Positions 1-24,331 of a DNA stretch of 64,000 nucleotides are shown piece after piece. The stretch lies in the IMG/VR virus record IMGVR_UViG_3300033076_001341, positions 32,001 through 96,000 of that record; one strand, written 5' to 3'. Position numbers and translations under genes: made by a program. Numbering within the stretch: position 1 is the first letter of the stretch; every line of letters begins with the position of its first letter. Below the pieces are notes generated by a model that did no database searches, was not told the origin of the DNA, and worked only from the letters and a program-made list of their open reading frames with translations. This DNA comes from a virus. Taxonomy: Duplodnaviria; Caudoviricetes.

Positions 1-2
1 TT

Positions 3-605: not shown

Positions 606-624
606 TATCCCATCCCCTTGAATA

Positions 625-3600
625 ATGTCTTGCACTATAGATTCCAAGGTGCTGCGCACCGCGCTTGAAAAAGCTCTACGTACCAATCCTGAAAAATATC
701 GCAACCTTGAAAACTCGGTTCGCGACGTTATGCGATTGTCAAACCTGACTGATGAAGTCAAGGTAAAGGTTATAGCTGCATACAGCGAACTGTACAAACA
801 CCTATCTAGAAAGTCTACAGCTTTTGAATTAAACAACCTCGATACATTCCTGGACGCCCGCGTGGTTCCCATGATTGATGATACTTCTCTGAGCGCCTCG
901 CGTTTCACTGAAGCATTGTCTATGATCCAGGAGCAACTCGGAGTGACTCCCGCCACCGGTACTACGCAGAACATCCGCGCTAAAGAACTGGCGGTTGCGT
1001 TATCGGAAGCTATCGAGAGTCCACTGGTTGGACGTTACGCCCGCATCAAAGCAGTAGCGGACACCGTGGTTCAAGAGCGCAGTCTGCTGGACGCCGGGAT
1101 GAACGACTCCCAGGAACTCAACAGTGTAAAATTGCTGGAGAACGCCATTGACAAATTGCAGAACAGCGGTATGGACAAAAACACTGTCCGCAACCTGATG
1201 AAAGCATTGTCTCCCGCACTGGCGCAACTGCGTACTCCAAACAGCGAAAACGGATACATTGACCTTCGCTTAATCCCGGAACTTTCCTCCAATCGTTTTG
1301 AAGCGTACCTCTCTGACGGATCTATTGTCGATCTGCTTAAAGAAGGTGAGAGCTACATGATTCTCGATGAGAACCTGCAGAGCACCGGTGAAGTCTATGA
1401 CCTTAGTGCAAACCCTGCACCTAAAGCGGTCTTCCCTGTACCCAGCTCCTGGATTGCCAACGACGGCGCTACACTCCTGATCAACGGTGATGAGATCAAC
1501 ACCGGTCTGGTAATGATTGGTGCAGACCTGGAGGCATTCAGTAACGAAGTAATGAGTTCGACCAACAATCCGGTCAACACCGTTACCGTAGTTGCTAATA
1601 ACAGCAACGCTGCCCGCAATGCTGCCCGCTTTAATATCATTCGTCAGGCAGTAGCTCAATACCCTGCACTTGCTAACCGTACCATTGAAACCCGCGAAAG
1701 TGCTGCGCAGGTACGTGCCCTGCAGAGTGGTAAACCCGTGCTGACCCGTGCTCGCCTGAGCGATGGATTTTCCCTTCAATTGGTTTCTCCTTCCGGAAAG
1801 ATGGTCACTGTCCTGAACTACAACGATTACGTCGTGGTATTCCCAGACAACACTACCCGCAGACTGGATCTTGAAAACGAAGAGGATCTGAATCTCTTTG
1901 CGCAGCTGACCAATATCCGCTACACCAAGGGAGCAGCTAAGAACACCGTGCGTCCAACGACGATGGATGACTTGTACATGTTGCGTGATGGTGCCCGCCG
2001 CTATAAAGCGTTCGAAGCAGAAGTCAACGCATTGCTTGACAAAGGAGAGACAACCATTCCAACATCTGTATTCAGCAAGTACTTCGAGTTGCAAAACCAG
2101 GTGTACTACAATGACTTTACTAATTCATACGACACCATGGAGAAAGTCTATGGAGAGCGTTTTGATCAGTTCGTCAATAAGCACAACGGCGGATTCTCCG
2201 TAGACGTTGTAAACATCAACGATAAAACCAATCCTACCAAGCGTCAGTTGCCGGCAATCTTTGCACCGGTATACACGACCCGCAATGCTCGTCGCGGTGA
2301 TGCGTGGAGACCCATCGAACTATTGGGTCCCGATGAATACGTACTGCACGAGGGTAAGATTTACAAGTGGAAAGAATACGTAGAAAAAGTATTGATGAGC
2401 ACCATGGGTGACTCGATCTCTAAACTGAGTTTGCTTTCCGGTCACCGCTACGCCAGTTTGTTTCCTGTCAGCGGAACCAAGCATGCTGTGATTCCACTCA
2501 TCCGTAACAAGCAACCCAAAGTAACCGCCCAGTACGCTGATGTACTGCTGAACCTCGGACGCTTCGTTGCAAACTTTACCTCGACCACTCCTACTAAAAC
2601 ATACACCAACAACTTCAACAATGAAGTATTTGGTTTTGAAATTGTCAGCGGTGTACGTGCCGACTTCTTTACCAACATTGGTAAGAACGGTAAGCCGTAT
2701 CTGGCGGTGCAGTTCAATGCAAAAGACACGCATGCAGATGCTGCCTTCTTTAACGAGAATGCCAGCTTGCTGAACTTTGCCGTGAGCAGTGATCCACTGG
2801 ATAAGATCATGGAAACCGTTAAGGCGTTCTATGAATCCCAGGGTCTTGATTTTGTTTACGAGTCTGCAGCAGATGCCAAGCGTATCGCTGAAGAACTCAA
2901 TGGTCTGTTCACCAATGCTGCCGGCAAAGAAGCGGTGCAGAAACTGCAGGAAGAGATTGATAACATCTATCAAAAGTTTACCAAGGACGTACACACGAAG
3001 TTTGGTAAGAAGCTGGATAGTTTGCTCAACCATCCTGAAGCAGAAACCCGTGAGATGGCGCAGCAGATGATCGGCACCAAGGAGAAGTTCATGTTCCAGC
3101 TCTTTGAACAGGTTGAAAATAAACCCGTGCTCAAAGTTCAGAACAAGGAAACCACCTACCGTGACCTGAGTAGCTACTACACGTATAAGTCCAACATGTT
3201 TAGCCGCCTGTCACTTCGTTACAACATGGTTAGTCCATTTGAGCGCAGTGAGTTCAGCGATGCACTCGATGAGATGGAGACTCTTGTTGTACCACCGATT
3301 GACTTGTTTACTACTGAGCAAGACGTTGAAAATAATTTCACCATGTTCCCCGGTGCTACTCCAGAGAGTGGCAGCAGCAGACTGGATGACTTTGATATGT
3401 TTGATCCCTTTGAAGGAGGTGCAGCTTCGCTGGGTGATGCCTTGCAGCTTGCCGCTTTTGAACAGGGTGAATTCCAACGCCAGGTTGATTACATCCGCGA
3501 GCGTCTTCCCAAAGACATTGCTATTGATGATCTGGATAAGATTGTCCGTAACCTGGACGCTGAAGGTAACGTGCTTGGATACATCAAAGACAAGGTGATT

Positions 3601-6600
3601 TACCTAAATGAGAATCTTTCTCGTCCTGGAACTGCCTATCACGAAGCATTCCACGCCGTGTTCCGGTATTTGTTATCTCCTGAAGAGCGTGCAAACCTGT
3701 TGAGTCGCGAGTACGAGAGCATGGGTATTATTTCTGAGTCAGCAATTGCTGAATTCAGAAAGCAACGCCGTGGTCTTGCACACATGAGCAACACCGAAGT
3801 GATCGAGCTGATGGCGGAAGAACGTATGGCGGACAAGTTTCAGTCCTACGCGATTAAGAAAACGAAACCACAGACATGGTATGCCAAGTTGTTTAATCTC
3901 ATTCAACGTCTGATTGAGTTTTTCACGAAACACAAAAATGAAATCGAACAGACCTTTGACAGAATCCACAGCGGGTTCTACTCCAGTGCGTCTGCCAAAG
4001 AATACAGCGGTGTAGAAGGTGCTTACCAACTGATCAAGACCGTTCCGACCATGGGTCTGCTGGATGGTAAGATCAAAGGATTTACCGAAAGCATGAACGC
4101 TGCAGACATGATGGAGCTGCGTAACATGATGGTCTATGAAATGCTGCGCACCAAGAATGCTGCTGGCATGACAGCTGATCAGCGTTACGACGAAGTTGCC
4201 AACATGCTGCGCTCTTATTACAACATTGACAATTTCATCCGTCAGCGTCCCGATGCGGAGTCTTTCATCCGCAGTAAGTATGAAACTAAGTTGCGTGACT
4301 TCCGTTACGTTTTGGGTGGACTACAGAACGGTGAGAAGTATGCGGTTCTGAACCTCACAGGTGATCCTCGTTATGACAACAAGTTTATCGATGGTACCAA
4401 CGAAGGAGTGATTGCCCAGAATGCACAAGAGAGCTACCGTCAGATGAAGCAGATGGTCCTGGAGATTGTTGAGAATCTGAACACCACCGACACCATTGAA
4501 AACGCCTTGGCAACAGGTGCGATCAACGAGACGGACAGCGGTGATGTGGTGATGCAGGCAAAAGCTGACGTGGAAGAGACGGGCGCAAAAGATCCGGATA
4601 TCTCTCTTCTGGAAACAGGAACCTCTGATGGTGATCGTGAATTCAGAAAGATATTCCAGTTCCTGGTCTATGAGCAGGAAGACTTCGGAGTGGGAATCAC
4701 CATTCGCAGACCTGTTGACGCAGATAAGTTATTTGACTCCGTAAAGAAGATTACGGTAAATACTCCCAAGGCAGAGATTCTGCCTCAGATCCGTCAGCGC
4801 ATTGAAACGCTGGAGCAGGATCTGGAGCACATCAACCGACTCCTCGGTCGGATCAGCGGCTATCCTGCTGAACGGGATAACACTTACGAACTGGCGCAGA
4901 GTTTAAAGGCGATGATGAACATGCTCACTACCACCTGTGGTATTGAGAACAACATCCCGACCCGCAACGAAGCAATGTTCAACCAGTTCCACAGTGTCTT
5001 CTATGTCGCCTCTGGAGAGATCTCCCGGGTAGACATCAAGACCAAACGGGAGTTTGATGCTGCCGGTGTAGCGATTTCCAGTGAGATGCGCGTCGTAGAC
5101 GTAGCACAAACCCAGGATAATTTTGCTGCGCTTAATAAAGTTATTGACGGATACAACAACACCTACCGTTTACTACCGGAGACCAGCGACGGAGGATACT
5201 TCCGCGCCAGCAAGAAGCAGATTCAAGCGGATCTGAAAGAGACCATGGACATTATCCTGGAACGTGGATCAAAAGAGATCAGCACGTTCTACCTGGAAAA
5301 CGGAGAGTTCTCCGATGCCATGGTAAACAAACTTGCCGATGACCTGTATGTCATCTCCAGTTCTGCCGGTCTGGGTCTTCCCCGACATTTCTTCCATTTC
5401 TCCCTGGTTGCTATGATCCAGGCGAGCGGTTATCGTATTCCTGAAGGAAGCGAAGCGCGCTCGATCCTGATGGCAAATACTGACATCTACAAGGAGAAAG
5501 GATACATGACGCCCAGCATGCTGACAGCAATGCGCTACATGTTCAGCTACTCCGACAAAGTGCCGTTGTTTGAAAACACCGCTAACAAAACCCGCAAGTC
5601 AGTCGTTGCCAGCTTCCTGCCGGCAATGATGTACGTGACCCGCTATGATCAGTCAATTGGTCAGCCGGTAGTGATGAACACCACCGGTAATAAGATCTAC
5701 CGCTTTACGCTCTACTCGCCCAACATGCAGGTGGTGCAGGATCTTCAGCAGCTGGGTCTCAACGAGTTTGTCAAGGACGTCTATGGTCAGGACTTCGTAA
5801 GTTGGTTTAATGACAACCCTTACTTACAGGAAGGTGTACTCAGCGATTTGTTACAGGAGTACCTGAAGGTCGGATACCTCAATGGACTTTCTCAGCAGAT
5901 TGACGAAGGAGATAACATTAACACCGACGTCAGCAAAATTGACAAAAAAGGATACCATCTTTCTAACCTGGCGTTGTTTGCAGACCGCAAGTCTTACAGT
6001 CGTGCGGGACAGAAGCTGACAACGTTCAAGCGGATTACGTCTCAGAACGATGCGACCGGCACCGTGTTCCATGTAACGGGTCGTTACGAGGAATACATGA
6101 CCACCGTTGGAAACGCAAAGACAGAGTTCAACGGAAAGAAAGTCAGCATGATCAGTGCGCGTCTTGCCGGCTTGATTCAGCAGGAATACAACCGTATCCA
6201 AAAAGAATACCAGGAGCGGGACGTCAACAAGACCCGCTACAATGATTACAACGGTAAGTTACTTGCCGATGGAACCGTAGATACGACCAGTGCAAAGTTG
6301 CGTGCGTATAACTTCCATCACCTGGACAGTTTCTTCTTAAATGAGATTGGTGCAACAGACTCCAGCATTGTGGATGAGAATGTAGCTGCCAGGGTGTACA
6401 TGCGCGAGCAGTTGATTGCTGCAGCTAAAGAAGGAAAGTCTTTTGCAGATACGTTGAGTAGTCCTGCACTGGCACCGCTGTTTGAACAACTGGACTTGTA
6501 CGCACAAGATGAATTTGAGTTCTTCCTGGAGAACCTGGAGAATGAAAAGATCATTGAAAAAGTTGGAGCTGATTACAGCACTGCTTTCTTTGACACTTCC

Positions 6601-9600
6601 TACAAACTTAATGGGGAGAACAAAACGGGTGCGCTGGGTAATTCACTGAAGACGCACCTGAACGATTACTTTTTCAATGACTGGGTGAACCGATTGCTTG
6701 TTAACCAACTCTTTGATGGTGACAAGGCAGTAGGTATCAAGAGCGCCGTGGATTACTACAAGCGTTTGAAGTCTCAGGCTGCTGCCGGCAAAAACGCCGA
6801 GAGCGCCAGCCGGATCATCAAGCACGGTACCAGCACCTATCGCCATGTGGTGATTACCACTCCTGGAAATAAAGAAATTCCTGTGTACTTCGATCCCAGT
6901 GACCTGACTAAACCTCAGCAGCACTCCAGCGAAGGCATGGAAAACTATAAAGCATTTGAGATCATGGATGGTCACGTCTACCAGACACTGAACCACCGCA
7001 TGAAGTTCCTCAGTGCTGAAGGCAAGCTTGATGCCCGCAGTGAAGAGATCATTCGCTCTTTGCGATACAAGCGTGCAAGCTTTGAGGAGATTGAATACCT
7101 GGAGAGTCGTGGTATCCAGCTGAACCCGCAAAAGACGGTAACAGCGCACCCGATTCACTACCTCAAGATGAGTGAGCACTACATCAACCGTCTGACCGTG
7201 AGCTACTACCGCGCCGCTGACAAGCGTGCTGCCAGGGACCGTGTCGCTGAAATGTACAAGCTGCTCGATCTGTACGAAGGTCAATTGGATTTAGGCATCG
7301 AGGTGAACGAAAACGGTGAGTCTATCGAAAGACTTTACCGCGATACAGTGACCAAGATCCACCAGGAGTTTGCACCGATCAACGGCAGACAGATGCTGCA
7401 CAGCATGCTCAACAACATGGAGTATCATCGCCTGGGACAACTGAGTGATAACAGTGCTTCCAAGCGGGGAACTATTATTCCTGCCAGCGTCACCATAGAG
7501 CAATTAGAATCAGGTGATACTTACTGGGATCTCGATAATCACGTAGCGACCATTCCGATGCGATATGCGTACAACCAGGTAGCAACTGAAATGCATCACC
7601 ATGATGTAACGGATTCTATTCAGCCAAAGTTGCTTATTGATACGGACATTGACCTGAAGGACCCCAATGTTCCGGAAGACCTTAAGAAGCTGGTGCGTAC
7701 GTACCGTACCCTGCTGAACAACATGTCAGTGAACTCCCGCAAGAAGTTCGAGCGCGTAGTTAAAAAAGGCGGAAAGATTGACACAGCAAACTTCTACAAG
7801 ATGATCCAGGAGTCCCTGCAGAAACAGGGTGCTCCCCAGCACATGCTCAAGATGTGGGACGTTGTAGACGGAGAACCGGTGCACAGTGCAAACTTGCCAG
7901 GTATTACCGAGGCGTTGAAATACTATGTATTCAGCAGCGCCAATGCAAGCTTGTTCCAACCAAAAGCACCTGGTTACAAGTTCTACCACGGTTCCTCTTT
8001 CGGATACAAGATCATCGTTGATGAAAACGATGTGCCGGTACCGGACGAAGAGATCCGCAAGAACCCTGAGAAATATAATAATTACGAAACCCGGTATCCA
8101 TCGTTCCGCAAGACTATCAATGCCGAAGGTGTTGAAGAGTATTACGTAGAGGTATTGATTCCAAGACCAACCAGCACCAACCCCAAGAAGTTGCGTGTGC
8201 TGGAGAAGTCCCTGGAGGAGTTCTTTGGTACCCGTATCCCTACGGAGGATAAACGCTCCATGGTGCGGGTGAAAGTGGCTGGTTATATTGACGCTACCTA
8301 TATCAATACGATTGTCGTTCCAGAACAGATTCACTATTTGTCCGGATCAGATAAAGATATCGATGCGTTGTACGTACGTATGCTCGGCACCTATGACAAC
8401 GTCCTGGGTGAATTGAACATCTACGGGGATTACTCCGAGTACGAGGATCGCTACGGCATGGATGCAAAGACTGCACGCTTTGTGGAGTACCTGCATTACA
8501 TGATGAACGATCCATTCTTCGGACCGCTGGTGAGCAAGGAACTCCGTCGTATGAAAGAAGACGCCGGATACAAAGTAGAGAACCTCAAAGAAAGCGCTGC
8601 CATGTTTGGTCCTAAAGTGCAGGAGTTCTTTACCCGCTCTATGGACGACATCATGAGCGCTATGCAGAGTCGTTTCAGGGACCTCAAAGAATCTAAACAG
8701 ATCCAGACAACCGGCAAGAAGTTTACTTCTTTTGAAGACCTGCGTGACATCGTGGATGCACAAGGCGACGAGAGCAGTGTAGAGCTTCAGCGTCAGCTTC
8801 GTCTCCTGGAAAAGATGGCGGCAGTTGTCAACGTATTGCAAGGTACGGACATGCCGGTGACTGCAGAGGAGCTGATGAAGTATGAGAAAGCAAACGGCTC
8901 TCCTGTGATTCCGATTATCCAGAACGAGATTACCTCGGTGATGAACAAGATCCTGGGTCACAATTATGTCTTTGATAATCTGTACAGCAAGGAATTCTCC
9001 AACGCAGATATTTATAAAAACGCCGTAGACAAACTGGGTCGCGATGAAAAGGACACCATTGGTCAGAGCAATTTTGCAACGATCACGTCGGTATCGAACG
9101 TGCGTGACTCCAACAAGAGCGCCAAGCGTGGTATCGAGATCTTTGCAGCGTTCAACAAAGGATTGAGTATTGCCGTAAAGCACGGTCTGAAGCTGCAGGA
9201 ACCAATCTGGAACATCAACGGTAAAACGTACAAGAGCTTCAGTATCGAGGATGGTGATGACCCAAGCAGACAGCGTGCACATGCATTGATCGGAAACTCC
9301 CTGGGTATGAGCGCCGATGCGGCGAAGAACCCTTATCCTGCCGTACTGAGTCTGAATCAGTACAACATGGCGGTGACTGCTACGATGCTGAGTCTGGGTA
9401 TTGATCCTTATCTGAGCATCTACATCAACCTGATGCCTTCAGTCAAAAATGCCGTGAGTGTGTACGAAGCAGAAGCAGAAGGATCTGTGCGACGCAGTTA
9501 TAAAAACGGTACAAGCTTATCGACGCACCTCTTCAATACGCTGACCTATAAGTTAAATGAACTCTCTGTTGGCGATGCTGCACAGCAAGCGTTTGCCAAG

Positions 9601-12408
9601 GACTTTACCCTGAGCGACTACACGTTCAATTTTGATGTGGAGAATGTTGATCCAAACATCGTGAACAGCGATAACCCAACGGTTGATTCCATGGGTGTGG
9701 AAGTGGTGAACACGAAGGGTCTGGAGTTGACGGCAGAGATGAAAGACGTGGTGATGCTGGCAATGTTTATCGAACAGCAAAAGCAGGCAGAAGCGATTCG
9801 CTACGAACTGGGTCCGTTGACAGATGCACAGAAATCACTGTCACCGGATTTCAACACGATTGATCGTTTGAAGAACGTATACAGCAAAGACCGCGACGAA
9901 AGTGTGTTTGAAGGATACAAAAACATCTTTAGTGAGAGTCCTGTATACAACGACCTGGGTAAGAGTATTGAACTCTTTGATGAGATGACCTCGGAAGTGT
10001 TCCTGGAAAGAACACCTCTGGTAAAAGAATTGACCAAACAAATCAATGCGGCAATCTATGCAGCAAACCCGCAGCAGATCTCTTCGCATATAAAAAGCTA
10101 CCTGGCGCTGAACGTACTGAAAAATACGATCACCACCGCCATGCAAGATCCGGAGCTGGAGAAAAACTCTCCGGTAGTACATGCCCGCTACAGCAGCTTC
10201 CTGAGCATGCTCAACGCGGACTACTGGTATAACAACAACATGCCCAACACAATCAACCGTTTGAAGCGTGAGTTCCGTGGCAATGCATTTCTGGATGCTA
10301 TTGATGTGTTTAATGGAAAGAACGGACTAAAGCTTGTGCGCAGTGTAAGCAAAGCAAAGGTGAGTCCTGAACGGGAGATCATGATCATGAACGGACTGGA
10401 TCAGTTGTTGACCAACTCCGATGCAACGGTTCGTGAAGCAGCTTACCAGATCTTTTATTATTCTATCGTCAAAGACGGAATGTCGGCAGCTCCTTACAGC
10501 TTGCGCCGATTCCTGAACCCGGATAACTTCCGCGAGGTAAGTAACCAGCTTAAGAAAGTAGAGAAAGCATTTGACACACTTAACCAGGCGTACCAAGAAA
10601 ATGCTGGTATGGATTTCCGCAAAGCATTCGAGTCAGAATTCAAATCCTTGTTGGGTGAGAATTCTAGTCTGGACTTTGTGATTGAAGACGTGATGGAGAA
10701 GATCATCAGTATTTATGATCCGACGGCTGATGAGAGTAAAGTTAAGGTGCTGAACTATACCAATGAGCGTGGTAAGTTTACCGGCTATGGTGTCAAAGCA
10801 ATGCAAGAAGCAATTGAAAGCATGCGTCCTTCCATGGGTGCAGAGATCTTTGCAGAAGCGGAAGCAAATGCACACGAGAGCCGCAACCTCAAGCGTAAGT
10901 TCAAACTAAACAAGAAGCGTGCAGAAGATACAGGTAAACCTGTTTCCAACAACGACCTCTTCCTTCCGGATAGCAACGACGAAGTAGTCCTGAACATGGC
11001 AAACGCTTCCAAGTTAAACAACGAAATGTTTGACAAGATTGCGATGCACAACAGCATCTATCCTCGTCGCGTCAACGCCGAAACCCTGACCAAAGAGTAC
11101 AGCTTCCCGCTGTATGTAACCAATACGTACGGAGACCTGATGGTCCTAAACGAAGTGGACGGTCAGAAGCTGGGTAGCAAACTCTTTGATAAGATTGAAG
11201 AGCAGATGAGTAACGATGCATCGCAGATAAATGGTAATCCGTTTGTGGGAACCAAAGCGGTGTACAAGATCGTGAAACGCCAGGGTGATGCAAACATCAA
11301 CCCCATTGCATTCTCTACCAAGGAGGCAGTGAAGTTAAACGACTATGCAACCGGTGCGTTAACACCTTCTATCACCACCATTGATGAGACAGGCGGAACC
11401 TACAAAGGCATTACGGTACTGAGTGCAAAAGATATGGTGCGCCAGGGCACTGGTGAACCCGGAGCAGCAAAGTTCCGTCGTGCTGACAACACTATTGTGA
11501 TTGACCGCGATACGCTTTATGACAAGTACTACGAGAAAGCGTGGACGAGTCCCTTGAAGCAGCGTGATGGAAGTTTTGCTACGGCATTCCCGGAGAACAC
11601 GTTCAACAACTACAACGACTGGGAAACTTTCGTTCTGGAGCACGAGCGTCAGCACATGGTGCTTGGTCCAAAGCAATTGAATGAAGAGTACGGTGCGTAT
11701 GAGGATCGGGTGAATCGTGCAGCACTTGCTGCATTATTTCCCGGAATGGATCTGACATTTCTGGATGCAGCAACACAAGCTCCTGCAGACCAGAGTGTAA
11801 ATGAACCCATCCTGGTTTCTACTCCAGAGCAACCCCTTGAGATCTATGTCGATGGATCGCACATCAAAGGAACCGGTATGCTGGGATACGGCGCTGCTGT
11901 AAAACACAACGGCAGAACGCTCAGCATGAGCGGAACAGAGGAGAGCAAAGCGTTCAAGTCGTTCCAGGCTAAGTTCCCGTCTGCGAAGTTCTCTAATCCA
12001 ACAATGGAGATGCTTGGACTGGTGATGACGCTCAACACGTTTAAGGACACTGCCGAGCACCTGGTGATCAAGCAGGATTACAAGGGTGTTGTAAACTACG
12101 GTGCACTTTGGAATCGCTCAGAAGGATCGTTGCAGCGTGAACCTAAACCATGGAACGCGAAGGAAACCTACATCCAATACCTGGTCGACAAAGCGGTGGA
12201 GATGATCGAGCGCATCGAGAGCAACGGTGGTACCGTTAAACTTCAATGGGTGAAGGGTCACAGCAAAGACGTGATGAACGACGCTGCAGACGCTGCTGCC
12301 AAAGACAGAAGTGTATTTAACCAGTTCGGATTGTTATTCGAACAGAATTCAGTAGAGAAGGTCATTCAGTCAAAGACTGAGGAGTCCAAAGAATGTAACA
12401 ACAACTAA
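625..12408 (+). CDS. Giant crAss-like virion RNA polymerase polyprotein with two zincin-like motifs and a C-terminal RNase H domain
   Basis: 3927 aa; RIPTEDKRSM (nt ~8233) then GSDKDID (DxDxD, nt 8350-8364) as in crAss-type two-barrel virion RNAPs; YHEAFH...EERMADKF (nt 3640); HERQH (nt 11641); RNase HI motifs YVDGS, NPTMEML, QDYKGV, WVKGHS, NDAAD (nt ~11839-12303). Confidence 0.85.
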   Translation: MSCTIDSKVLRTALEKALRTNPEKYRNLENSVRDVMRLSNLTDEVKVKVIAAYSELYKHLSRKSTAFELNNLDTFLDARVVPMIDDTSLSASRFTEALSMIQEQLGVTPATGTTQNIRAKELAVALSEAIESPLVGRYARIKAVADTVVQERSLLDAGMNDSQELNSVKLLENAIDKLQNSGMDKNTVRNLMKALSPALAQLRTPNSENGYIDLRLIPELSSNRFEAYLSDGSIVDLLKEGESYMILDENLQSTGEVYDLSANPAPKAVFPVPSSWIANDGATLLINGDEINTGLVMIGADLEAFSNEVMSSTNNPVNTVTVVANNSNAARNAARFNIIRQAVAQYPALANRTIETRESAAQVRALQSGKPVLTRARLSDGFSLQLVSPSGKMVTVLNYNDYVVVFPDNTTRRLDLENEEDLNLFAQLTNIRYTKGAAKNTVRPTTMDDLYMLRDGARRYKAFEAEVNALLDKGETTIPTSVFSKYFELQNQVYYNDFTNSYDTMEKVYGERFDQFVNKHNGGFSVDVVNINDKTNPTKRQLPAIFAPVYTTRNARRGDAWRPIELLGPDEYVLHEGKIYKWKEYVEKVLMSTMGDSISKLSLLSGHRYASLFPVSGTKHAVIPLIRNKQPKVTAQYADVLLNLGRFVANFTSTTPTKTYTNNFNNEVFGFEIVSGVRADFFTNIGKNGKPYLAVQFNAKDTHADAAFFNENASLLNFAVSSDPLDKIMETVKAFYESQGLDFVYESAADAKRIAEELNGLFTNAAGKEAVQKLQEEIDNIYQKFTKDVHTKFGKKLDSLLNHPEAETREMAQQMIGTKEKFMFQLFEQVENKPVLKVQNKETTYRDLSSYYTYKSNMFSRLSLRYNMVSPFERSEFSDALDEMETLVVPPIDLFTTEQDVENNFTMFPGATPESGSSRLDDFDMFDPFEGGAASLGDALQLAAFEQGEFQRQVDYIRERLPKDIAIDDLDKIVRNLDAEGNVLGYIKDKVIYLNENLSRPGTAYHEAFHAVFRYLLSPEERANLLSREYESMGIISESAIAEFRKQRRGLAHMSNTEVIELMAEERMADKFQSYAIKKTKPQTWYAKLFNLIQRLIEFFTKHKNEIEQTFDRIHSGFYSSASAKEYSGVEGAYQLIKTVPTMGLLDGKIKGFTESMNAADMMELRNMMVYEMLRTKNAAGMTADQRYDEVANMLRSYYNIDNFIRQRPDAESFIRSKYETKLRDFRYVLGGLQNGEKYAVLNLTGDPRYDNKFIDGTNEGVIAQNAQESYRQMKQMVLEIVENLNTTDTIENALATGAINETDSGDVVMQAKADVEETGAKDPDISLLETGTSDGDREFRKIFQFLVYEQEDFGVGITIRRPVDADKLFDSVKKITVNTPKAEILPQIRQRIETLEQDLEHINRLLGRISGYPAERDNTYELAQSLKAMMNMLTTTCGIENNIPTRNEAMFNQFHSVFYVASGEISRVDIKTKREFDAAGVAISSEMRVVDVAQTQDNFAALNKVIDGYNNTYRLLPETSDGGYFRASKKQIQADLKETMDIILERGSKEISTFYLENGEFSDAMVNKLADDLYVISSSAGLGLPRHFFHFSLVAMIQASGYRIPEGSEARSILMANTDIYKEKGYMTPSMLTAMRYMFSYSDKVPLFENTANKTRKSVVASFLPAMMYVTRYDQSIGQPVVMNTTGNKIYRFTLYSPNMQVVQDLQQLGLNEFVKDVYGQDFVSWFNDNPYLQEGVLSDLLQEYLKVGYLNGLSQQIDEGDNINTDVSKIDKKGYHLSNLALFADRKSYSRAGQKLTTFKRITSQNDATGTVFHVTGRYEEYMTTVGNAKTEFNGKKVSMISARLAGLIQQEYNRIQKEYQERDVNKTRYNDYNGKLLADGTVDTTSAKLRAYNFHHLDSFFLNEIGATDSSIVDENVAARVYMREQLIAAAKEGKSFADTLSSPALAPLFEQLDLYAQDEFEFFLENLENEKIIEKVGADYSTAFFDTSYKLNGENKTGALGNSLKTHLNDYFFNDWVNRLLVNQLFDGDKAVGIKSAVDYYKRLKSQAAAGKNAESASRIIKHGTSTYRHVVITTPGNKEIPVYFDPSDLTKPQQHSSEGMENYKAFEIMDGHVYQTLNHRMKFLSAEGKLDARSEEIIRSLRYKRASFEEIEYLESRGIQLNPQKTVTAHPIHYLKMSEHYINRLTVSYYRAADKRAARDRVAEMYKLLDLYEGQLDLGIEVNENGESIERLYRDTVTKIHQEFAPINGRQMLHSMLNNMEYHRLGQLSDNSASKRGTIIPASVTIEQLESGDTYWDLDNHVATIPMRYAYNQVATEMHHHDVTDSIQPKLLIDTDIDLKDPNVPEDLKKLVRTYRTLLNNMSVNSRKKFERVVKKGGKIDTANFYKMIQESLQKQGAPQHMLKMWDVVDGEPVHSANLPGITEALKYYVFSSANASLFQPKAPGYKFYHGSSFGYKIIVDENDVPVPDEEIRKNPEKYNNYETRYPSFRKTINAEGVEEYYVEVLIPRPTSTNPKKLRVLEKSLEEFFGTRIPTEDKRSMVRVKVAGYIDATYINTIVVPEQIHYLSGSDKDIDALYVRMLGTYDNVLGELNIYGDYSEYEDRYGMDAKTARFVEYLHYMMNDPFFGPLVSKELRRMKEDAGYKVENLKESAAMFGPKVQEFFTRSMDDIMSAMQSRFRDLKESKQIQTTGKKFTSFEDLRDIVDAQGDESSVELQRQLRLLEKMAAVVNVLQGTDMPVTAEELMKYEKANGSPVIPIIQNEITSVMNKILGHNYVFDNLYSKEFSNADIYKNAVDKLGRDEKDTIGQSNFATITSVSNVRDSNKSAKRGIEIFAAFNKGLSIAVKHGLKLQEPIWNINGKTYKSFSIEDGDDPSRQRAHALIGNSLGMSADAAKNPYPAVLSLNQYNMAVTATMLSLGIDPYLSIYINLMPSVKNAVSVYEAEAEGSVRRSYKNGTSLSTHLFNTLTYKLNELSVGDAAQQAFAKDFTLSDYTFNFDVENVDPNIVNSDNPTVDSMGVEVVNTKGLELTAEMKDVVMLAMFIEQQKQAEAIRYELGPLTDAQKSLSPDFNTIDRLKNVYSKDRDESVFEGYKNIFSESPVYNDLGKSIELFDEMTSEVFLERTPLVKELTKQINAAIYAANPQQISSHIKSYLALNVLKNTITTAMQDPELEKNSPVVHARYSSFLSMLNADYWYNNNMPNTINRLKREFRGNAFLDAIDVFNGKNGLKLVRSVSKAKVSPEREIMIMNGLDQLLTNSDATVREAAYQIFYYSIVKDGMSAAPYSLRRFLNPDNFREVSNQLKKVEKAFDTLNQAYQENAGMDFRKAFESEFKSLLGENSSLDFVIEDVMEKIISIYDPTADESKVKVLNYTNERGKFTGYGVKAMQEAIESMRPSMGAEIFAEAEANAHESRNLKRKFKLNKKRAEDTGKPVSNNDLFLPDSNDEVVLNMANASKLNNEMFDKIAMHNSIYPRRVNAETLTKEYSFPLYVTNTYGDLMVLNEVDGQKLGSKLFDKIEEQMSNDASQINGNPFVGTKAVYKIVKRQGDANINPIAFSTKEAVKLNDYATGALTPSITTIDETGGTYKGITVLSAKDMVRQGTGEPGAAKFRRADNTIVIDRDTLYDKYYEKAWTSPLKQRDGSFATAFPENTFNNYNDWETFVLEHERQHMVLGPKQLNEEYGAYEDRVNRAALAALFPGMDLTFLDAATQAPADQSVNEPILVSTPEQPLEIYVDGSHIKGTGMLGYGAAVKHNGRTLSMSGTEESKAFKSFQAKFPSAKFSNPTMEMLGLVMTLNTFKDTAEHLVIKQDYKGVVNYGALWNRSEGSLQREPKPWNAKETYIQYLVDKAVEMIERIESNGGTVKLQWVKGHSKDVMNDAADAAAKDRSVFNQFGLLFEQNSVEKVIQSKTEESKECNNN

Positions 12409-12409
12409 G

Positions 12410-15400
12410 ATGGCTTGCAGTATTATACGTAACAAATCAGGAGAAATTAAAACAGTCCTTGCATCAAACGGTAAGGACTCTATCCTGTACAAAGAGATTC
12501 TTCAACTTCCCACTATTGCGGGAGACAAGGAAACAGCACTGAGGATGTGGGCGATTGCTTACACCCCGGAGTTCAAGACCCGTCATGGAGATTGGGAACA
12601 AGCTAAAAGTACCATCAACCTGGACGCCAACGGTGAACCGGTGGTTGGATACGTGGGTGCTTTTGCTAACCTGGCAGCTGTCAACTACAGCCTGAATGCA
12701 GAGACTGTGACCTATGACAAGGAAAAGCAGCGACTGGAGCAGCAGTTCAAGCTGCGCTTTGGGGCGTCTAACACGGACAGCCAGCGCAAAGCAATGGACA
12801 TGGTTCGCCAGATCAACGCCGTCGCACTGACCGGTGAGGCGTCGCTGTACACGTTTACGGATACCCAAGGCAAACCGATGTACATGATTCACTTCACCGA
12901 GGTGAGTTATGACCAGATGAAAGACATCAACGGGTTTGACACCAGTGATTCGTCATATCGTGCTGAAAAAGAGCAGGTGCAGCAAGTGCTGGACCGGTTG
13001 ATGAAGTCTGTTCCTGGAGTAAAGGCACAATGGATACACCCCACGGAATTGCAGGCAGCCGATCACCCCAATAAGAATCTACGTTCTATCAACGCTTATG
13101 TAAAGGGAGACACCGTGTACCTGGTGGAAGGACGGGTGACTCCGGACATTGCCATGGAAGAAGTGTTGCACTTTGTAGTGGAGATGCTCAAAGTAGATCG
13201 TCCTGCACTGGCAATGCGTTTGTTCAACCAGGCAAAAGCAGCAGTGCCTGCCCTGTGGAACGAGATTGAAACAACCTACACCGATGAGCGTGGGTTTACT
13301 GCAGCCAACCGCAAGAGTGAGCTGATCACCCGGATGTTGCAGAAAGAATACCGCAACGAGATTGAGACCAACCCTGCCCGTGAGTTTGCAGAGATGCGCA
13401 CGGTACTGGGAAACATATTTAAGTGGTTGACAGATTTACTTAACAAAGTATTTGTCGACAAAGCATACGGCGACACAGCTGTGGTGGATTTGCGCGAGCT
13501 GCCACTAAACACTACGTTCAACGAGCTGGCAGTGATTCTGAACACCCGCAACGTCGTGATTGAAGCATTCAGCATTGATGATGTACTCTACAACCTGGAA
13601 GAAGCAGAGAATGAAGATCTGGAAAAAGAACTTCCTGTCCCCGGTGAAGAAGAGAAGCGTGGAGACGCTGTCTGGAAAAAGAAAATCCTGGAGCGACAAC
13701 TGGAGCGTGTGGACAAGCAGCTGGACTACTTAGCACTGGCAGAAAAGAACTACCGTCCCAACCCCGCACAGAAACTTACGCTGGGTAAACTGCGCACGCA
13801 GCTGGAGGAGTACAAGCAGATCCTGATCAATACCCCCAATAAGACACGTCGCGTGTCCCGGGTGATTGGGCAGACGGATGTAACCGGCGCAGAAAACTAC
13901 GCAAACTTTGGAACTTTCGTGCACAACATGCTGGAGGAACTGCAGGTACGGTCTCTGGAGACCAAGCAGGCACCTATCGTATTGTTCGAGCGGGAGGATT
14001 TTGATATTCGTTACCGGGAAACCATGGATAATCCCAAGACTGCGTTTGAATTCAAGGGGATGACGCAGGAGGATGTCTATAAGATGACCAAGGAGATTAT
14101 CGGTTTCCTGGGTGACGTGTACGCTCAGGGACAGATCCTGATCCCGGAGATGACCATGATCAGCAAGGACCCGCTTCGTGGTGCCATTGTGGGTCGTATT
14201 GACTTTATGGCGGTAGACAAGAAAGGTCGTGTCACCGTGTACGATTTAAAGACTGCTCGGATTAATGCCGGGGACCTGCCGCACAACAAACTGAACAAGG
14301 AGTTCAAGAAGGAGACGTTTCTTCCAGGAGTAACTCCTGAATTCGGGATGCTCAAGATGCGCAGTAAGTTCATGGATTACGATGCACAGCTCAGCGTGTA
14401 CGAGCGCATGATGAAGCAAGCAGGTATTGAAGTCAACGAACGCATTATCCTGAGTTTGATTTACGCAAACAAGAACAAGAGCGTTGTTGCCAGCGGAAAG
14501 GAATTTGAATTCGCCAGCGCACGCGTGCACCGCTACAGTGAGTTTGACTATGCGTACCGCACCGAGTATGAGTATGACCAGGAAGGCAACGTAACAGGCG
14601 AATTCAGAGTGCTTCGCCGTGAATTCATGCGTATCCGGGAGGCAGCTAAAGATGCTGTTCCCATTGAAGGAGAAACGTTCGAGGAATACAACCAGGACCA
14701 GATGCGCGAAGGCGTAAACTACTTTGGGGTGTTTAACGATCAGACCCTCGATGAGTTTGTGGACATGATGGTAGAAGGTATTGACGATCAGCTGGCGCAG
14801 CTTCGCAACGAACTCAAGAAGAGTGATGCGTACTTCAGCGATCCGAAAGTAAAAGAATATTACCAGGACCGCAGCAAGCAACTCTACCAGATCAAAGAGG
14901 AGATGCTTAAAGCAAACGACGAAGAGAAACTAGCACTTGCTAAAGGGATCAAGTTGTCGGCTGCTGTAGCGAGTCTGAATTTGAGTGCTAAACAGATCGA
15001 AGAAGAAGCAGCGCGTCTGGAAGGATTGAATCTGTCGTTGGAAGAACGCCTCAAGCGTCTTAGTCAGATCAAAAACGAAGCAGAACACCTCGATGAAGTG
15101 CTCGGTGTAATTCAGGAAGTGGGTGAGCGCACCAAGCTTGCCAGTACCGATCCGTTGATGCAGGTACTGAGCAGTTCAAGATCTGCGCTCAAGAGTGCTA
15201 TTAGCAAGTACCGCAAACAGGGTGAGGAGATTATGATCGAGGTAATCAAAGAATCGGTCCCTGAAGAACTCATCAGTGAAATCTATAAAGACCGGGGTGA
15301 ATACCTGCAAGGGGTTGTCCGTGGACTGGAGCGAGAGATTGCTGAACTGGAGAACCCAGAATGGCGTCCGCCGGTATGGCAGCTGCACAAGCGTTTTGCA

Positions 15401-18400
15401 TACAAACCAGAAGACATCAACCAGATCCGCCAGGAGAAACTTGCAGAGAAAAAGAAGGAACTCGCTACAGCAATTGCCGATCAAAGCAAAAAGACGCTGA
15501 GCGAAAAGGATATTCAGGACTATGTCCATGCACTGACCAACAACAAGGACGCAGCGCTTTACATTGGTAGCAACACCAGCACTACCCGTATTGGTTTTGG
15601 TTTGGGTGACTTGATCAGTAACTCGACCAACCCGGAGTTGATTGTGTTTGCTGTGTTTAACAAACTCAGAAACCTGACCAACGATGCACAGAACAATGCA
15701 ATGAACAACTTCTATGAGATGGATTTTGACGGTAAAGTCAAGTCGTTCGTCTCCAGGAAGGGAGGAGAATCTGCTGCCAACGCTGTACTGCGTGAACGTA
15801 GAACGGTGACGTACTTCAACGAAGACGGTACTACTTACACCAAGGATCACTATTCGTTTAAGAATCCGGTGACCCAGGAGTACTTTGACTACATCGACCA
15901 GCAACGTCGACTCATTAGTGACAAGCGTAAGTTACTGCGTGATCTGCGCAAGCAGCGTAATGCTGATCCTTCCAACACGGAAATCAAAGACCAGGTGGAA
16001 GCGCTTGATGCAGAACTAAACAATGACGTCGCTACTTACAACCAATGGTTGAAGGAAAACACCGAGCGTGAATTCGTGGACGATTACTATGAGTTGAGTG
16101 TGAGTCTGCCGGCAAACGTGCAGAACGAACTCAACGAGATCGACGATGAGATCAGCCGTGTTCGCTCCACCAAGGTCGGTGCAGAGGAATTGCTCACTGA
16201 GCTGGAACTCGAAAAGATCGATGAGTTGGAACTGAAGAAGAACAAACTCTTCCAGGATGCAATTAAGGCAGATCCGGAGTATCAGGAAAAGATGCAGCGC
16301 TACCGCGAGCTGAAGACCTACGATGAGAACTGGGGACTGTATAACAAGTTCCGTGCAGAGAAGATGGCTGCCTACGGTGCAAACTCTGAGGAGTTCAAGC
16401 GTTGGGAGAAACTTAACAAATTCAGACGTCCTTCTGAGAAATACTACAAAGAGATCGAGCGTATCTATAGCCGGATCAACAAGATCATGGGTGAGCAGGA
16501 CGAGGAACTTAACATGCTCATGGGAGAGCGTGCAAAGATCCGACGCAAGTACAAGCTGAACGGAACGTTCTTCTCCGGTAACATGGACGCCGCTGACATC
16601 GAGGCGTACGATAAACTCGAAGCAAAGATTGAAGCGATCCGTGAGAAAGCTGCCATGGAACAGGAAGAGTTTGGTGAAGAAGGTGGATTGTCCCTGGAGG
16701 TACGCAAGCAACTGGCACCTCTTTATGATCGCCTGAGCAAGCTGCGCAGTAAGAAGAACACGGAGAGCTATACCAATGAGCTGAACAAGCGTGTGAACGA
16801 ACTGGAGGTTGCTGGTAACATCCTGCGTTCTTATGAGTCCATGATGGATCAGGACGGTACCTCTTCGTTCAAGAATGAAAAAGACCTGGAAGAGAAATAC
16901 CATGCTGCCGAGCAGAACTACAATACGATTGAAGATCAGTTTGAGCAGTGGTACAACAAGAACCACGCAAACACCTACACGGTGGGTACATTCCGTAACG
17001 GAGAAGCGCTTGATCCAAAACCCAAGACGTTCCACTACGAGTTTGTTCCCCGGGAAGATCTGGCTGATGAGTACTTCGAAGAAGTATTGCACCGCCGCTA
17101 TCGTTTGTCCCGTCCGACAGAAGCTGCCAAGAACGACAAGTTCCAGCTGACTCCGGAAGGATACCCTGTACCCAAAGGACTGCAGTTAAAAGACAACCGC
17201 TGGGAGATCAGTGGATCGAACCCATACATCAGCAATGACTTTATTGAGCTGACACAGAATCAGCAGGATTACGATTTCTACAACTGGTTGGTAATGGATA
17301 ACTACATTGCCCGCCAGGACGGTACTGCCGGCAGAAAACTTGGATTCCTCTTTCCAGGAGTGCAGATGAATAAGATCGACAACGTCAAGCAGTTTGGCAT
17401 GATGCAGGGAATTCGTCGGGAAATAGAAGAGACCACAGCAGAAGTTACGTTGGGTAAAAACAAAAGTGACATTGATCTAGCGTCTAACGAGTACAATACG
17501 ACCGGGCGGATGCGTGTGCGTTTCAAGTACAACTTCCCGATGGAAGCGGACATTACCACGACCAATGGTATCACTGCCGTGGGTATGTGGATGGTGGAGC
17601 GTGAGATCAACCACGAGATGGGTAAGGCGGATGTTGCCTTCAGTGCAATCATTGATGCAATGGAAGCCATGCGTGACCACGTGCATGACACCAACAAACT
17701 CAACCAGCTTAACAAAGCAATTGAATTAGTCACCTTCGAGCGTGACAAGTTTATCTACGGTAAACGCATGAAAGGTGATGACGGAGATGTCAACAAGATG
17801 AAGGCATTGCGGATGTTCATGAAGGCAGTGAGTTTTGGTCGATTGGGTTTTGACTTTGCAGCGCAGACCGGTAACATGCTTTCCGGTAACGTGCAGACGT
17901 TCCTCAATGCGCAGGACGGTGATTACACGTTGTCGAACCTGGCTACAGCTAAGAAGCAGACCTATAACATCCTGATGAACATGGTGCGTGACTATGGTAA
18001 AGTGAGCGACGTGTCGTTCGAAACCAAGTTTGTGCGTTTCATGAACCCTTCACAAAAGGAACTTTCTGAACTCATTGACCTGAACACCAAGACACAGCTG
18101 GATCGTTTCCTGACAAAGAGTATGGACCTGGGTAATCTGAGTTACATGCTCCAGGATAAAGGGGAAATGGAAATTGCGATTACCACCATGACCGCCGTAC
18201 TGGATCACCACAAGTTCAAAGTGTTTGACCTGGACAGCAGCGGCAACAAACAGTACGATGCCAACGGAGAAGTGCTGTACAAGATGAAAGATGGTGAAGT
18301 GGAACTGGCTACTGGTTGGACAGCGTTTACTGAAGACGCCAGTGGGCGGATCGTTTCTCGTCCGGATGTAGACATCACTGAGCAACAGGTCAAGATGCTG

Positions 18401-19165
18401 CGCAACAAAGTCTACTCACAGATCCTTAAGTCCCAAGGTAACTATGCAGACTGGACCTCTACGCACATCAGCTCTACGCAGTTCGGGGTTATGATGGAGT
18501 ACTTTAAGAAGTACTTCGTGCACATGGCGCTTCGTCGCTTTGGTAAACACCAGGAAGACTTTGAAGGCATGAAGTATGCCGCTGGCTGGTACCGCATTCT
18601 CTTTGACATGTTCCGTCGCTACGGATTTAAGGAAGGTGTTAAAGCAATGATTCCAGGAGCAAACAAAAGTGAGGTCAACGAATACTACCGCACCGGTTCT
18701 ATGCAGGCAGCTCGTGAGATGCTTACCGGTATGGTAATGATGATGCTCTACGGATATCTCCGAGGACTTGCCTACAGCGATGACGATGATGATAAAGAAC
18801 TCAACTGGATGCAGATGCAGATCATGCGTACGTTCGCCAAGGTGATTTCAGAATCCCGTTCGATGATCCCTGTTCCATACATTGGTAACGTGGATACATA
18901 CATTGACTCGTTCTCTAACTTTACGTCGGTGTTCCGGGAGGCAAAGACTGCCTGGAAGCTTATTGAGAACAGCATGTCGCTGCTTGGATATGAGATCTTT
19001 GGTGATGCCTTCGAGGAAGCAGCCTTTTACCAGAAAGCATACGGTATGTATGAAGCAGGTGATGCAAAGGCACTGAAAAACTTCCATGACCTGGTTGGTT
19101 ACGACAACATCGTTGGAATCTTTGATCCGCAGTACAAGTTGAAAGAACAGTACCGGAACAAATAA
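12410..19165 (+). CDS. Giant virion/ejection protein with a PD-(D/E)xK nuclease domain and a degenerate zincin-like motif
   Basis: 2251 aa; GTFVHNMLE...GRIDFMAVDKKGRVTVYDLKT...YDAQLSVY (nt ~13900-14410); MEEVLH in place of HExxH (nt ~13154); long helical coiled-coil regions; adjacent to the RNAP gene as in crAss-like phages. Confidence 0.75.
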   Translation: MACSIIRNKSGEIKTVLASNGKDSILYKEILQLPTIAGDKETALRMWAIAYTPEFKTRHGDWEQAKSTINLDANGEPVVGYVGAFANLAAVNYSLNAETVTYDKEKQRLEQQFKLRFGASNTDSQRKAMDMVRQINAVALTGEASLYTFTDTQGKPMYMIHFTEVSYDQMKDINGFDTSDSSYRAEKEQVQQVLDRLMKSVPGVKAQWIHPTELQAADHPNKNLRSINAYVKGDTVYLVEGRVTPDIAMEEVLHFVVEMLKVDRPALAMRLFNQAKAAVPALWNEIETTYTDERGFTAANRKSELITRMLQKEYRNEIETNPAREFAEMRTVLGNIFKWLTDLLNKVFVDKAYGDTAVVDLRELPLNTTFNELAVILNTRNVVIEAFSIDDVLYNLEEAENEDLEKELPVPGEEEKRGDAVWKKKILERQLERVDKQLDYLALAEKNYRPNPAQKLTLGKLRTQLEEYKQILINTPNKTRRVSRVIGQTDVTGAENYANFGTFVHNMLEELQVRSLETKQAPIVLFEREDFDIRYRETMDNPKTAFEFKGMTQEDVYKMTKEIIGFLGDVYAQGQILIPEMTMISKDPLRGAIVGRIDFMAVDKKGRVTVYDLKTARINAGDLPHNKLNKEFKKETFLPGVTPEFGMLKMRSKFMDYDAQLSVYERMMKQAGIEVNERIILSLIYANKNKSVVASGKEFEFASARVHRYSEFDYAYRTEYEYDQEGNVTGEFRVLRREFMRIREAAKDAVPIEGETFEEYNQDQMREGVNYFGVFNDQTLDEFVDMMVEGIDDQLAQLRNELKKSDAYFSDPKVKEYYQDRSKQLYQIKEEMLKANDEEKLALAKGIKLSAAVASLNLSAKQIEEEAARLEGLNLSLEERLKRLSQIKNEAEHLDEVLGVIQEVGERTKLASTDPLMQVLSSSRSALKSAISKYRKQGEEIMIEVIKESVPEELISEIYKDRGEYLQGVVRGLEREIAELENPEWRPPVWQLHKRFAYKPEDINQIRQEKLAEKKKELATAIADQSKKTLSEKDIQDYVHALTNNKDAALYIGSNTSTTRIGFGLGDLISNSTNPELIVFAVFNKLRNLTNDAQNNAMNNFYEMDFDGKVKSFVSRKGGESAANAVLRERRTVTYFNEDGTTYTKDHYSFKNPVTQEYFDYIDQQRRLISDKRKLLRDLRKQRNADPSNTEIKDQVEALDAELNNDVATYNQWLKENTEREFVDDYYELSVSLPANVQNELNEIDDEISRVRSTKVGAEELLTELELEKIDELELKKNKLFQDAIKADPEYQEKMQRYRELKTYDENWGLYNKFRAEKMAAYGANSEEFKRWEKLNKFRRPSEKYYKEIERIYSRINKIMGEQDEELNMLMGERAKIRRKYKLNGTFFSGNMDAADIEAYDKLEAKIEAIREKAAMEQEEFGEEGGLSLEVRKQLAPLYDRLSKLRSKKNTESYTNELNKRVNELEVAGNILRSYESMMDQDGTSSFKNEKDLEEKYHAAEQNYNTIEDQFEQWYNKNHANTYTVGTFRNGEALDPKPKTFHYEFVPREDLADEYFEEVLHRRYRLSRPTEAAKNDKFQLTPEGYPVPKGLQLKDNRWEISGSNPYISNDFIELTQNQQDYDFYNWLVMDNYIARQDGTAGRKLGFLFPGVQMNKIDNVKQFGMMQGIRREIEETTAEVTLGKNKSDIDLASNEYNTTGRMRVRFKYNFPMEADITTTNGITAVGMWMVEREINHEMGKADVAFSAIIDAMEAMRDHVHDTNKLNQLNKAIELVTFERDKFIYGKRMKGDDGDVNKMKALRMFMKAVSFGRLGFDFAAQTGNMLSGNVQTFLNAQDGDYTLSNLATAKKQTYNILMNMVRDYGKVSDVSFETKFVRFMNPSQKELSELIDLNTKTQLDRFLTKSMDLGNLSYMLQDKGEMEIAITTMTAVLDHHKFKVFDLDSSGNKQYDANGEVLYKMKDGEVELATGWTAFTEDASGRIVSRPDVDITEQQVKMLRNKVYSQILKSQGNYADWTSTHISSTQFGVMMEYFKKYFVHMALRRFGKHQEDFEGMKYAAGWYRILFDMFRRYGFKEGVKAMIPGANKSEVNEYYRTGSMQAAREMLTGMVMMMLYGYLRGLAYSDDDDDKELNWMQMQIMRTFAKVISESRSMIPVPYIGNVDTYIDSFSNFTSVFREAKTAWKLIENSMSLLGYEIFGDAFEEAAFYQKAYGMYEAGDAKALKNFHDLVGYDNIVGIFDPQYKLKEQYRNK

Positions 19166-19186
19166 GGATTTCTGAATTCTTTATGT

Positions 19187-19226
19187 TATATTATATATAG
19201 GGGTGTTCTCTACAGTCACCCCTATA
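19187..19226 (+). promoter_or_regulatory. Putative late-gene promoter motif TATATTATATATAG overlapping a 10-bp hairpin
   Basis: Identical 14-mer at 34779; stem TATAGGGGTG/CACCCCTATA; immediately precedes the tail gene cluster. Confidence 0.45.
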
Positions 19227-19239
19227 TCCGTAGTCTACC

Positions 19240-24330: not shown

Positions 24331-24331
24331 T

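Follow-up and report, generated by a model that had tools for sequence, protein, structure and literature searches.

The 64,000-nucleotide window analysed here (positions 32,001 to 96,000 of the virus record IMGVR_UViG_3300033076_001341) encodes a crAss-type virion RNA polymerase (RNAP) whose last ~190 residues are predicted to form a catalytically competent type-1 RNase H. The giant gene (625..12408, plus strand) is a single open reading frame (ORF) of 3,927 codons with no internal stops, in which accessory C-terminal modules follow the polymerase body. We regard the fusion as a polyvalent virion RNAP bearing an accessory module that has not been described: the preliminary description of this DNA knew of no earlier account, and our searches of the full-text literature, with subscription-only papers outside their scope, also found no paper describing an RNase H-virion RNAP fusion. 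The fusion is not peculiar to the source phage. In total, the domain is present in at least 58 non-redundant giant RNAPs, at N-terminal, internal or C-terminal positions.

RNase H domain and polymerase core in one chain

The RNase H domain spans residues 3738-3895 (11836..12309, plus strand) and was recognised by Pfam, PHROG, Protein Data Bank (PDB) and AlphaFold2 analyses. The Pfam RNase_H model (PF00075, cut-off 25.8 bits) scored 41.1 bits on the 402-residue C-terminal piece, 36.8 bits on the whole protein and 43.3 bits in a scan of the genome. PHROG 531 (“Rnase H”) matches residues 3738-3895 (E 5e-16), and PDB chains of Escherichia coli RNase HI match the domain with E 4e-5. In the alignment with the E. 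coli enzyme, D3743 of YVDGS falls on D10, E3795 of NPTMEM on E48, D3818 of QDYKG on D70, H3879 of VKGHS on H124 and D3889 of NDAAD on D134; all five positions named in the preliminary description are therefore exact. An alignment of the domain with 33 short relatives (34 sequences) shows the four carboxylates to be invariant and the histidine nearly so. The AlphaFold2 model built from this alignment has a mean pLDDT of 95.1, and Foldseek matched it to E. coli RNase HI with a probability of 1.00. Structural alignment with archaeal RNase HI (2ehg) gave a Z score of 14.6 and an rmsd of 2.6 Å over 133 residues, and Z scores for the E. coli, human and HIV enzymes are 13-14. The complete C-terminal RNase HI domain claimed earlier is thus borne out by profile searches and PDB alignment, and the structural modelling proposed as a check returned the RNase H fold.

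Copies embedded in giant proteins share a conserved 13-residue insertion (EGSxQRxPKxW) at the place where the E. coli type has its basic protrusion, or handle; most stand-alone relatives do not have it. The first strands of the domain (11836-11960, residues 3737-3779) also match the Pfam family IPI_T4 (PF11634; 25.8 bits, cut-off 25), and PDB entry 2jub matches the same strands with E 4e-4. IPI_T4 is an injected internal protein of phage T4 that inhibits a restriction nuclease. The overlap with the RNase H N-terminus is most likely a local resemblance, real or due to chance.

The catalytic core region of the polymerase (residues 2303-2672; 7531..8640, plus strand) was delimited by tblastn, by BLASTP against gp66 of phage phi14:2 and by motif conservation in relatives. 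Both polymerase motifs that had been claimed for this ORF were located, RIP at residues 2537-2539 (8233-8241, plus strand) and the DxDxD motif, here DKDID, at residues 2576-2580 (8350-8364, plus strand). When residues ~2125-2925 were used in tblastn searches, 65 GenBank phage records were matched, nearly all of them crAss-like and annotated as RNAP catalytic subunit, including crAssphage gp44 and phi14:2 g066. BLASTP against phi14:2 gp66 (E 2e-10) placed GTRIP...GSDKDID on GYRIP...GSDFDID (DFDID at gp66 1361-1365), and this match within a single ORF confirms the in-frame fusion to a gp66-type crAss RNAP that had been proposed. A further alignment of residues 2881-2928 to gp66 1595-1642 is weak and not significant. 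crAss-like RNAPs have I or V at the fourth position of DxDxD (10.1101/2020.03.07.982082), a rule that DKDID, with I at this position, obeys.

The fusion is confirmed not to be an assembly artefact, because independent JGI, Logan and ENA assemblies hold the same frame. An independent Logan assembly from another run (L086) contains the same 3,927-codon frame at ~1.7% nucleotide divergence; a stop or frameshift separating RNase H from the polymerase, a concern raised earlier, is present neither there nor in the window. Comparison of the two copies gave a pS of 0.073 and a whole-gene pN/pS of 0.018, and within the RNase H domain all 11 differences are synonymous and 0 non-synonymous. Proteins P0002-P0004, from JGI and ENA assemblies, show the same architecture at 58-63% identity overall and 70-76% in the RNase H domain. 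In the more distant collinear relatives P0005 and P0007-P0009, identity is 25-27% for the body vs 55-62% for the RNase H.

Occurrence of the RNase H clade in giant phage proteins

A profile-free search of 1.84 billion representative proteins with the domain returned 203 matches. Of these, 42 had E values under 1e-30; most are giants of 2,000-6,400 residues and the others short proteins, at least some of which are giant fragments; stand-alone RNases H (150-260 residues) mainly had much weaker scores. A FastTree phylogeny was built from 162 domains. Of its 76 short proteins, 63 fall on one side; the other side holds all giant-embedded copies plus 13 short and 14 mid-length entries. The SH-like support for this split is 84, and the deep nodes of the RNase H tree are therefore weak. 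The domain belongs to a specialised RNase H clade, members of which are almost confined to giant phage proteins. Of 71 giant-embedded copies, 70 retain the tetrad of acidic residues (DEDD) and 68 have the histidine in addition.

To identify the carriers we used a hidden Markov model (HMM) of the RIP...DxDxD region, which gave no match in 355 shuffled giants or in 131 other long ORFs. A crAss-type DxDxD core was detected in the same chain (E<1e-10) in 51 of the 71 non-redundant RNase H giants. Among 78 giants, redundant cluster members included, 51 have the RNase H downstream of the core and eight have it upstream. When IMG/VR was scanned without length bias, an alignment of six RNase H sequences identified 13 loci, at ten of which the domain is within the RNAP ORF; a single RNase H protein as query proved too specific, yielding one locus.

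At least seven of the remaining RNase H giants (P0020, P0022, P0025, P0028, P0039, P0041 and P0078) are virion RNAPs (vRNAPs) of the N4 type. The match of P0028 to the solved N4 vRNAP chains (E 2e-35) extends for ~1,250 residues in the C-terminal domain, N4 gp50 matches both P0020 (E 2e-45) and P0028 (E 2e-38), and the other five are linked through P0028. The middle region of these giants was aligned to the N4 polymerase domain by hhalign with a probability of 81% and E 1e-5. A weak precomputed vRNAP_dom_2 hit in P0028 and P0025 was not reproduced by Pfam; the grounds for the N4 assignment are thus the homology to the N4 C-terminal domain and the hhalign result. Between P0028 and the window copy the RNase H identity is 60%, and the P0028 domain includes the clade-specific EGSxQR insertion; on the FastTree phylogeny, N4-type copies are interspersed among crAss-type copies in at least three places. 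Because the same clade is found in crAss-type and N4-type giants, interspersed on the tree, it appears to have moved between two unrelated kinds of ejected polymerase.

The position of the domain within the N4-type giants differs. P0028 (4,092 residues) is the product of gene 10001-22279 on the 63-kb ENA contig L094, and its RNase H (residues 975-1145) precedes the polymerase domain; in P0020 and P0022 the RNase H lies between the polymerase and the C-terminal domain. A different arrangement is seen on the 45.5-kb Logan contig L095, which translates only with TAG read as Q and encodes three consecutive giants (1-9996, 10001-17266 and 17279-24418). These are, in order, a protein with RNAP motifs, a PIF1-like helicase-DUF1848-NADAR-RNase H protein and an ART-PolyVal protein. 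The RNase H of L095 is thus on a neighbouring giant, which suggests that co-delivery is conserved and that covalent tethering is not obligatory.

We found no match to the C-terminal 402 residues in tblastn searches of 50,697 GenBank phage records, so that no cultured phage is available as a model for the fusion. JGI automatic annotation calls several of the RNase H giants “ribonuclease HI”.

The survey of crAss-like RNAP homologues suggested in the preliminary description did find the fusion, but in only two of the closest relatives. This sample consisted of the 80 IMG/VR loci that best match the window RNAP core; the RNase H is part of the RNAP ORF at two of them (L006 and L033), and one more (L050) has a small RNase H-like ORF near the RNAP. 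A PF00075 search of 34 whole relative records, including phi14:2, again detected only L006 and L033; no RNase H was detected in the remaining 32 records, and 26 of these have a completeness of at least 90%. RNase H is not integral to crAss-type transcription. Canonical single-stranded DNA-binding protein (SSB, PF00436) was found in none of 38 records, whether RNase H carriers or non-carriers, and does not discriminate between them.

Exchange is evident at the C-terminus of the polymerase. The conserved body stops at residue ~3300-3570, and unrelated tails of 150-900 residues follow in relatives. The tail of L040 (12593-15361 on a 68-kb IMG/VR contig) is an AAA_33/zeta-toxin-like P-loop kinase (PF13671, E 1e-15), that of L013 contains DUF7831, and most others contain nothing recognisable. 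NADAR immediately precedes the RNase H in P0005 and P0026, the gene after P0026 holds ART-PolyVal, and P0036 combines ART-PolyVal, LPD23 and an SprT/DUF6782-like zincin. The RNase H is an accessory module moved by domain shuffling, outside the conserved polymerase body; its recurrence in two kinds of polymerase but in few phages indicates that it is probably an optional tool.

Carrier protein, neighbouring genes and source genome

Two further conserved blocks with HExxH motifs were found in the giant protein. The N-proximal one (3490..4104, plus strand), with HEAFH at residues 1006-1010, is a candidate zincin-like block recognised by BLAST to distant giants: residues ~950-1160 give separate matches in P0024, P0037, L041, L042, L055 and others, and the block is common to many crAss-type RNAP giants. 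The second is a small module at residues 3586-3704 (11380..11736, plus strand; HERQH at 3673-3677), which is defined by its recurrence and conserved residues. It has a conserved YED ~16 residues after HExxH, and H99, E100, H103, E119 and D120 are invariant. The module lies directly upstream of RNase H in P0001-P0004, P0010 and P0074, is separated from it by the NADAR domain in P0005, and occurs without RNase H in P0037, P0038 and P0042. Its model has a pLDDT of 79.5, and the top structural matches are small zincin-type metallohydrolases, with Z scores of 6.7 for YbeY, 5.4 for PprI/IrrE, 5.0 for abylysin, 4.9 for selecase and 4.6 for ArdC, all below a safe level. Searches with the module against Pfam at E<=1 and with Foldseek at E<=0.001 returned no hits, and Atlas gave sub-threshold leads to M85/M78 peptidases. 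The module is a candidate minimal zincin-type metallohydrolase; that it is a self-processing protease is a reasonable guess at most.

A low-complexity linker (residues 3705-3737; 11737..11835, plus strand), apparent from insertions in relatives and from the model, connects the HExxH module to the RNase H. It is variable, with 100-165 extra residues at the junction in P0002 and P0003, and the first ~13 residues of the RNase H domain model are unstructured. The RNase H core is followed by a C-terminal helix (model residues 183-201) and a tail (12310..12405, plus strand). The giant starts with MSC (625-633) and ends with KECNNN (12388-12405), and the next giant starts with MAC (12410-12418). A Pfam scan of the 3,927-residue protein detected no signature PolyVal or LPD domain; it appears to work like a polyvalent protein without the signature domains of that family.

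The next giant gene (12410-19165, plus strand) encodes 2,251 residues, of which 497-617 (~13898-14260) match a PD-(D/E)xK nuclease model (PF12705; 24.4 bits, cut-off 22). The orthologue beside P0004 has the same weak hit. This suggests a second nuclease, carried by a neighbouring probable cargo protein. No PHROG family was matched by the RNAP body or by the neighbouring giants.

The source genome, a virus record of 127,939 bp with a completeness rating of 100%, encodes the large terminase subunit (TerL), portal and major capsid protein (MCP). In tblastn searches the MCP matches crAss-like, Cellulophaga and Azobacteroides phages at 21-24% identity. The top GenBank match, ahead of all Bacteroidota crAss-like phages, is to a cyanophage, Leptolyngbya phage Lbo-JY46, at 29% identity and 99% query coverage; the MCP gene is at 13128-14741 of L091 (genome position 125128-126741). 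This top match may hint at the host range of the environmental lineage. Given MCP identities of 21-29% and the TerL/portal/MCP context, the source phage appears to be a distant environmental crAss-like phage outside the named Crassvirales families. The RNAP gene sits among giant structural and cargo genes, and the gene order, together with homology to gp66, which was verified in virions by mass spectrometry (MS), suggests that the 3,927-residue protein is packaged and ejected.

Elsewhere in the window, an ORF of 387 residues (51955-53118, minus strand) matches tyrosine integrase families (PHROG 1, E 1e-31; PHROG 216, E 7e-23). crAss-like phages are generally held to be non-temperate, which makes this ORF unusual.

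Possible roles and comparison with known systems

The reading that we favour, and to which we assign about an even chance of being correct, is that the RNase H enters the cell along with the polymerase and cleaves RNA in hybrids on the incoming genome, most likely hybrids made by the polymerase itself. In this scheme the RNase H module would be packaged and ejected together with the polymerase and would act on RNA:DNA hybrids on the entering phage DNA. The most likely substrates would be persistent hybrids or R-loops left when the polymerase copies single-stranded or unwound DNA, as such a polymerase would have no efficient RNA-displacement element. Cutting would free the template for more rounds of early transcription and for replication, and the domain may act while tethered or after release at the flexible linker by the adjacent HExxH module. 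The biochemical background given in the preliminary description agrees with the published record: gp66 transcribes single-stranded DNA (ssDNA) efficiently, as well as denatured double-stranded DNA (bioRxiv 10.1101/2020.03.07.982082), and N4 vRNAP, in which the RNA-separation element of T7 RNAP is missing, forms RNA:DNA hybrids on single-stranded templates and depends on EcoSSB for template recycling (PMC4496689). Transcription is also supported by another phage RNase H, Rhc, and the pattern points to removal of R-loops (bioRxiv 10.64898/2026.10.01.755736). The presence of the window clade in N4-type giants, whose polymerases are unrelated to the crAss type, lends indirect support to a link with virion RNAPs. 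Furthermore, the term “RNase H” has 0 occurrences in the 2017 catalogue of polyvalent proteins, which are mostly without RNAP, and this absence fits a polymerase-linked role and not a generic cargo role.

Several points weigh against cutting of the polymerase's own hybrids. With the domain at two of 80 loci and with 32 RNase H-less records, most crAss-type polymerases function in its absence. RNase H degrades a transcript where it is hybridised, and would thus rescue the template and not the message. The position of the domain relative to the core varies (51 downstream vs 8 upstream), and its location on a neighbouring cargo protein in L095 makes it unlikely that close coupling to RNA exit is required. 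Giant ejected proteins are hubs for co-delivered modules, so the association with RNAP may come from the delivery route. Packaging of the 3,927-residue protein is itself deduced from homology and gene order. A broader proposal, that the clade was repeatedly recruited by two evolutionarily unrelated classes of ejected RNAPs that copy ssDNA, the two-barrel crAss-type and the T7-like N4-type enzymes, as a built-in solution to hybrids that works through template recycling or by converting transcripts to primers, is tentative and somewhat improbable as it stands.

The same patchy, accessory distribution and shuffled module positions would be expected if the RNase H were an interchangeable counter-defence module on ejected polyvalent proteins, destroying RNA:DNA hybrids of host defences such as Argonaute or CRISPR guide-target duplexes or RNA-DNA intermediates made by retrons or by defence reverse transcriptases (RTs). 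Such a role is in keeping with the polyvalent hallmark domains of some carriers (ART-PolyVal, LPD23 and zincin in P0036; NADAR in P0005 and P0026). NADAR is a proven phage antidote to DarTG1 (PMC11825919). The other enzymes in the C-terminal slot of relatives (the kinase of L040 and DUF7831 of L013) and the PD-(D/E)xK nuclease on the next gene also point this way. However, guide:target hybrids are largely buried in their effectors, our literature search found no report of a phage RNase H as an anti-defence factor, and the clade is tied to RNAP chains of two unrelated types and absent from the polyvalent catalogue, where a generic module predicts otherwise. We consider this explanation unlikely, although not negligible. 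A role in replication is less probable still. Here RNAP and RNase H would make or trim RNA primers for the PolA-type polymerase, as at origins of the ColE1 RNA II or mitochondrial kind, or in Okazaki primer removal. The phage encodes a family-A DNA polymerase of 660 residues, the window RNase H is the only PF00075 match in the 127,939-bp genome, and the genome search found neither a FEN/5'-3' exonuclease (PF02739) nor RNase HII (PF01351). Yet the phage has its own primase and helicase, RNase H-less relatives with the same replication style indicate that the lineage needs no phage-encoded RNase H, and a protein that is made late, for packaging, and of which few copies are delivered is ill suited to removing primers in bulk.

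It is very improbable, in our view, that the domain is decaying, serves as a purely structural passenger or was created by faulty assembly or gene calling. Nothing but its rarity among relatives speaks for this. The catalytic residues are intact here, the DEDD tetrad is present in 70 of 71 embedded copies, the domain shows 0 non-synonymous vs 11 synonymous differences, the same frame is found in JGI, Logan and ENA assemblies, and the model has a pLDDT of 95. An artefact or pseudo-domain was accordingly rejected on the independent assemblies, the purifying pattern, the intact residues and the confident model.

crAss-like and N4-like virion RNAPs begin infection on single-stranded or locally unwound DNA, and how hybrids are cleared after them is known only for N4, where it occurs through host SSB. 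The presence of RNase H in a subset of both polymerase types offers a natural experiment, in which carriers can be compared with non-carriers and the domain can be mutated. RNase H can also be added to the modules known to be delivered by giant proteins that phages eject, and the signatures of the clade (SNPTME, QDYxG and the EGSxQR insertion) provide a marker for such giants in metagenomes. If recruitment by both polymerase classes is true, it would represent a transcription-coupled RNase H, mirroring the RT-RNase H of retroelements.

The closest characterised counterpart of the window protein is phi14:2 gp66. Both are single-chain RNAPs with I at the fourth position of DxDxD, encoded in a neighbourhood of giant virion proteins. 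gp66 is packaged in the virion, as verified by MS. It has 2,180 residues and no RNase H or other Pfam domain, and the phi14:2 genome is without PF00075; the window protein, in contrast, has 3,927 residues, two HExxH blocks and the C-terminal RNase H.

N4 gp50 offers a functional parallel, being a giant ejected polymerase that works on a single-stranded template, leaves hybrids and needs a helper for recycling (PMC4496689). Metagenomic N4-type giants share the RNase H clade of the window, with up to 60% identity. N4 itself is without such a domain, as none of the 50,697 GenBank phage records matched, and it clears hybrids by RNA displacement with host SSB and not by cutting. Its vRNAP is a T7-like single-subunit polymerase, the fold of which is unrelated to the crAss type.

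In the RT-RNase H fusions of retroviruses and retroelements, too, a type-1 RNase H shares its polypeptide with a polymerase, and the RNase H domains of HIV RT superpose on our model with Z scores of 13.3-13.7. There the RNase H acts on the RNA template, which it removes once DNA has been synthesised, and the replication cycle cannot proceed without it. In the window fusion, on the other hand, the RNA would be the DNA-templated product of the RNAP, and the RNase H is an optional addition.

Polyvalent proteins (Iyer et al. 2017, PMC5512222) are giant co-delivered proteins with interchangeable enzymatic modules and zincin-like peptidases; like them, relatives of the window protein contain ART-PolyVal, LPD23 and NADAR. 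The catalogue of that study includes no crAss-type RNAP and no occurrence of either “RNase H” or “crAss” (PMC5512222). Finally, Rhc (RNase H-clamp) of Chimalliviridae jumbo phages is another case of RNase H fused to a different nucleic-acid module (bioRxiv 10.64898/2026.10.01.755736). It supports replication as well as transcription by a non-canonical phage RNAP, apparently by removing R-loops. Unlike the window domain, Rhc is a sliding-clamp-derived fusion that serves as an essential DNA polymerase subunit and is not part of a virion RNAP.

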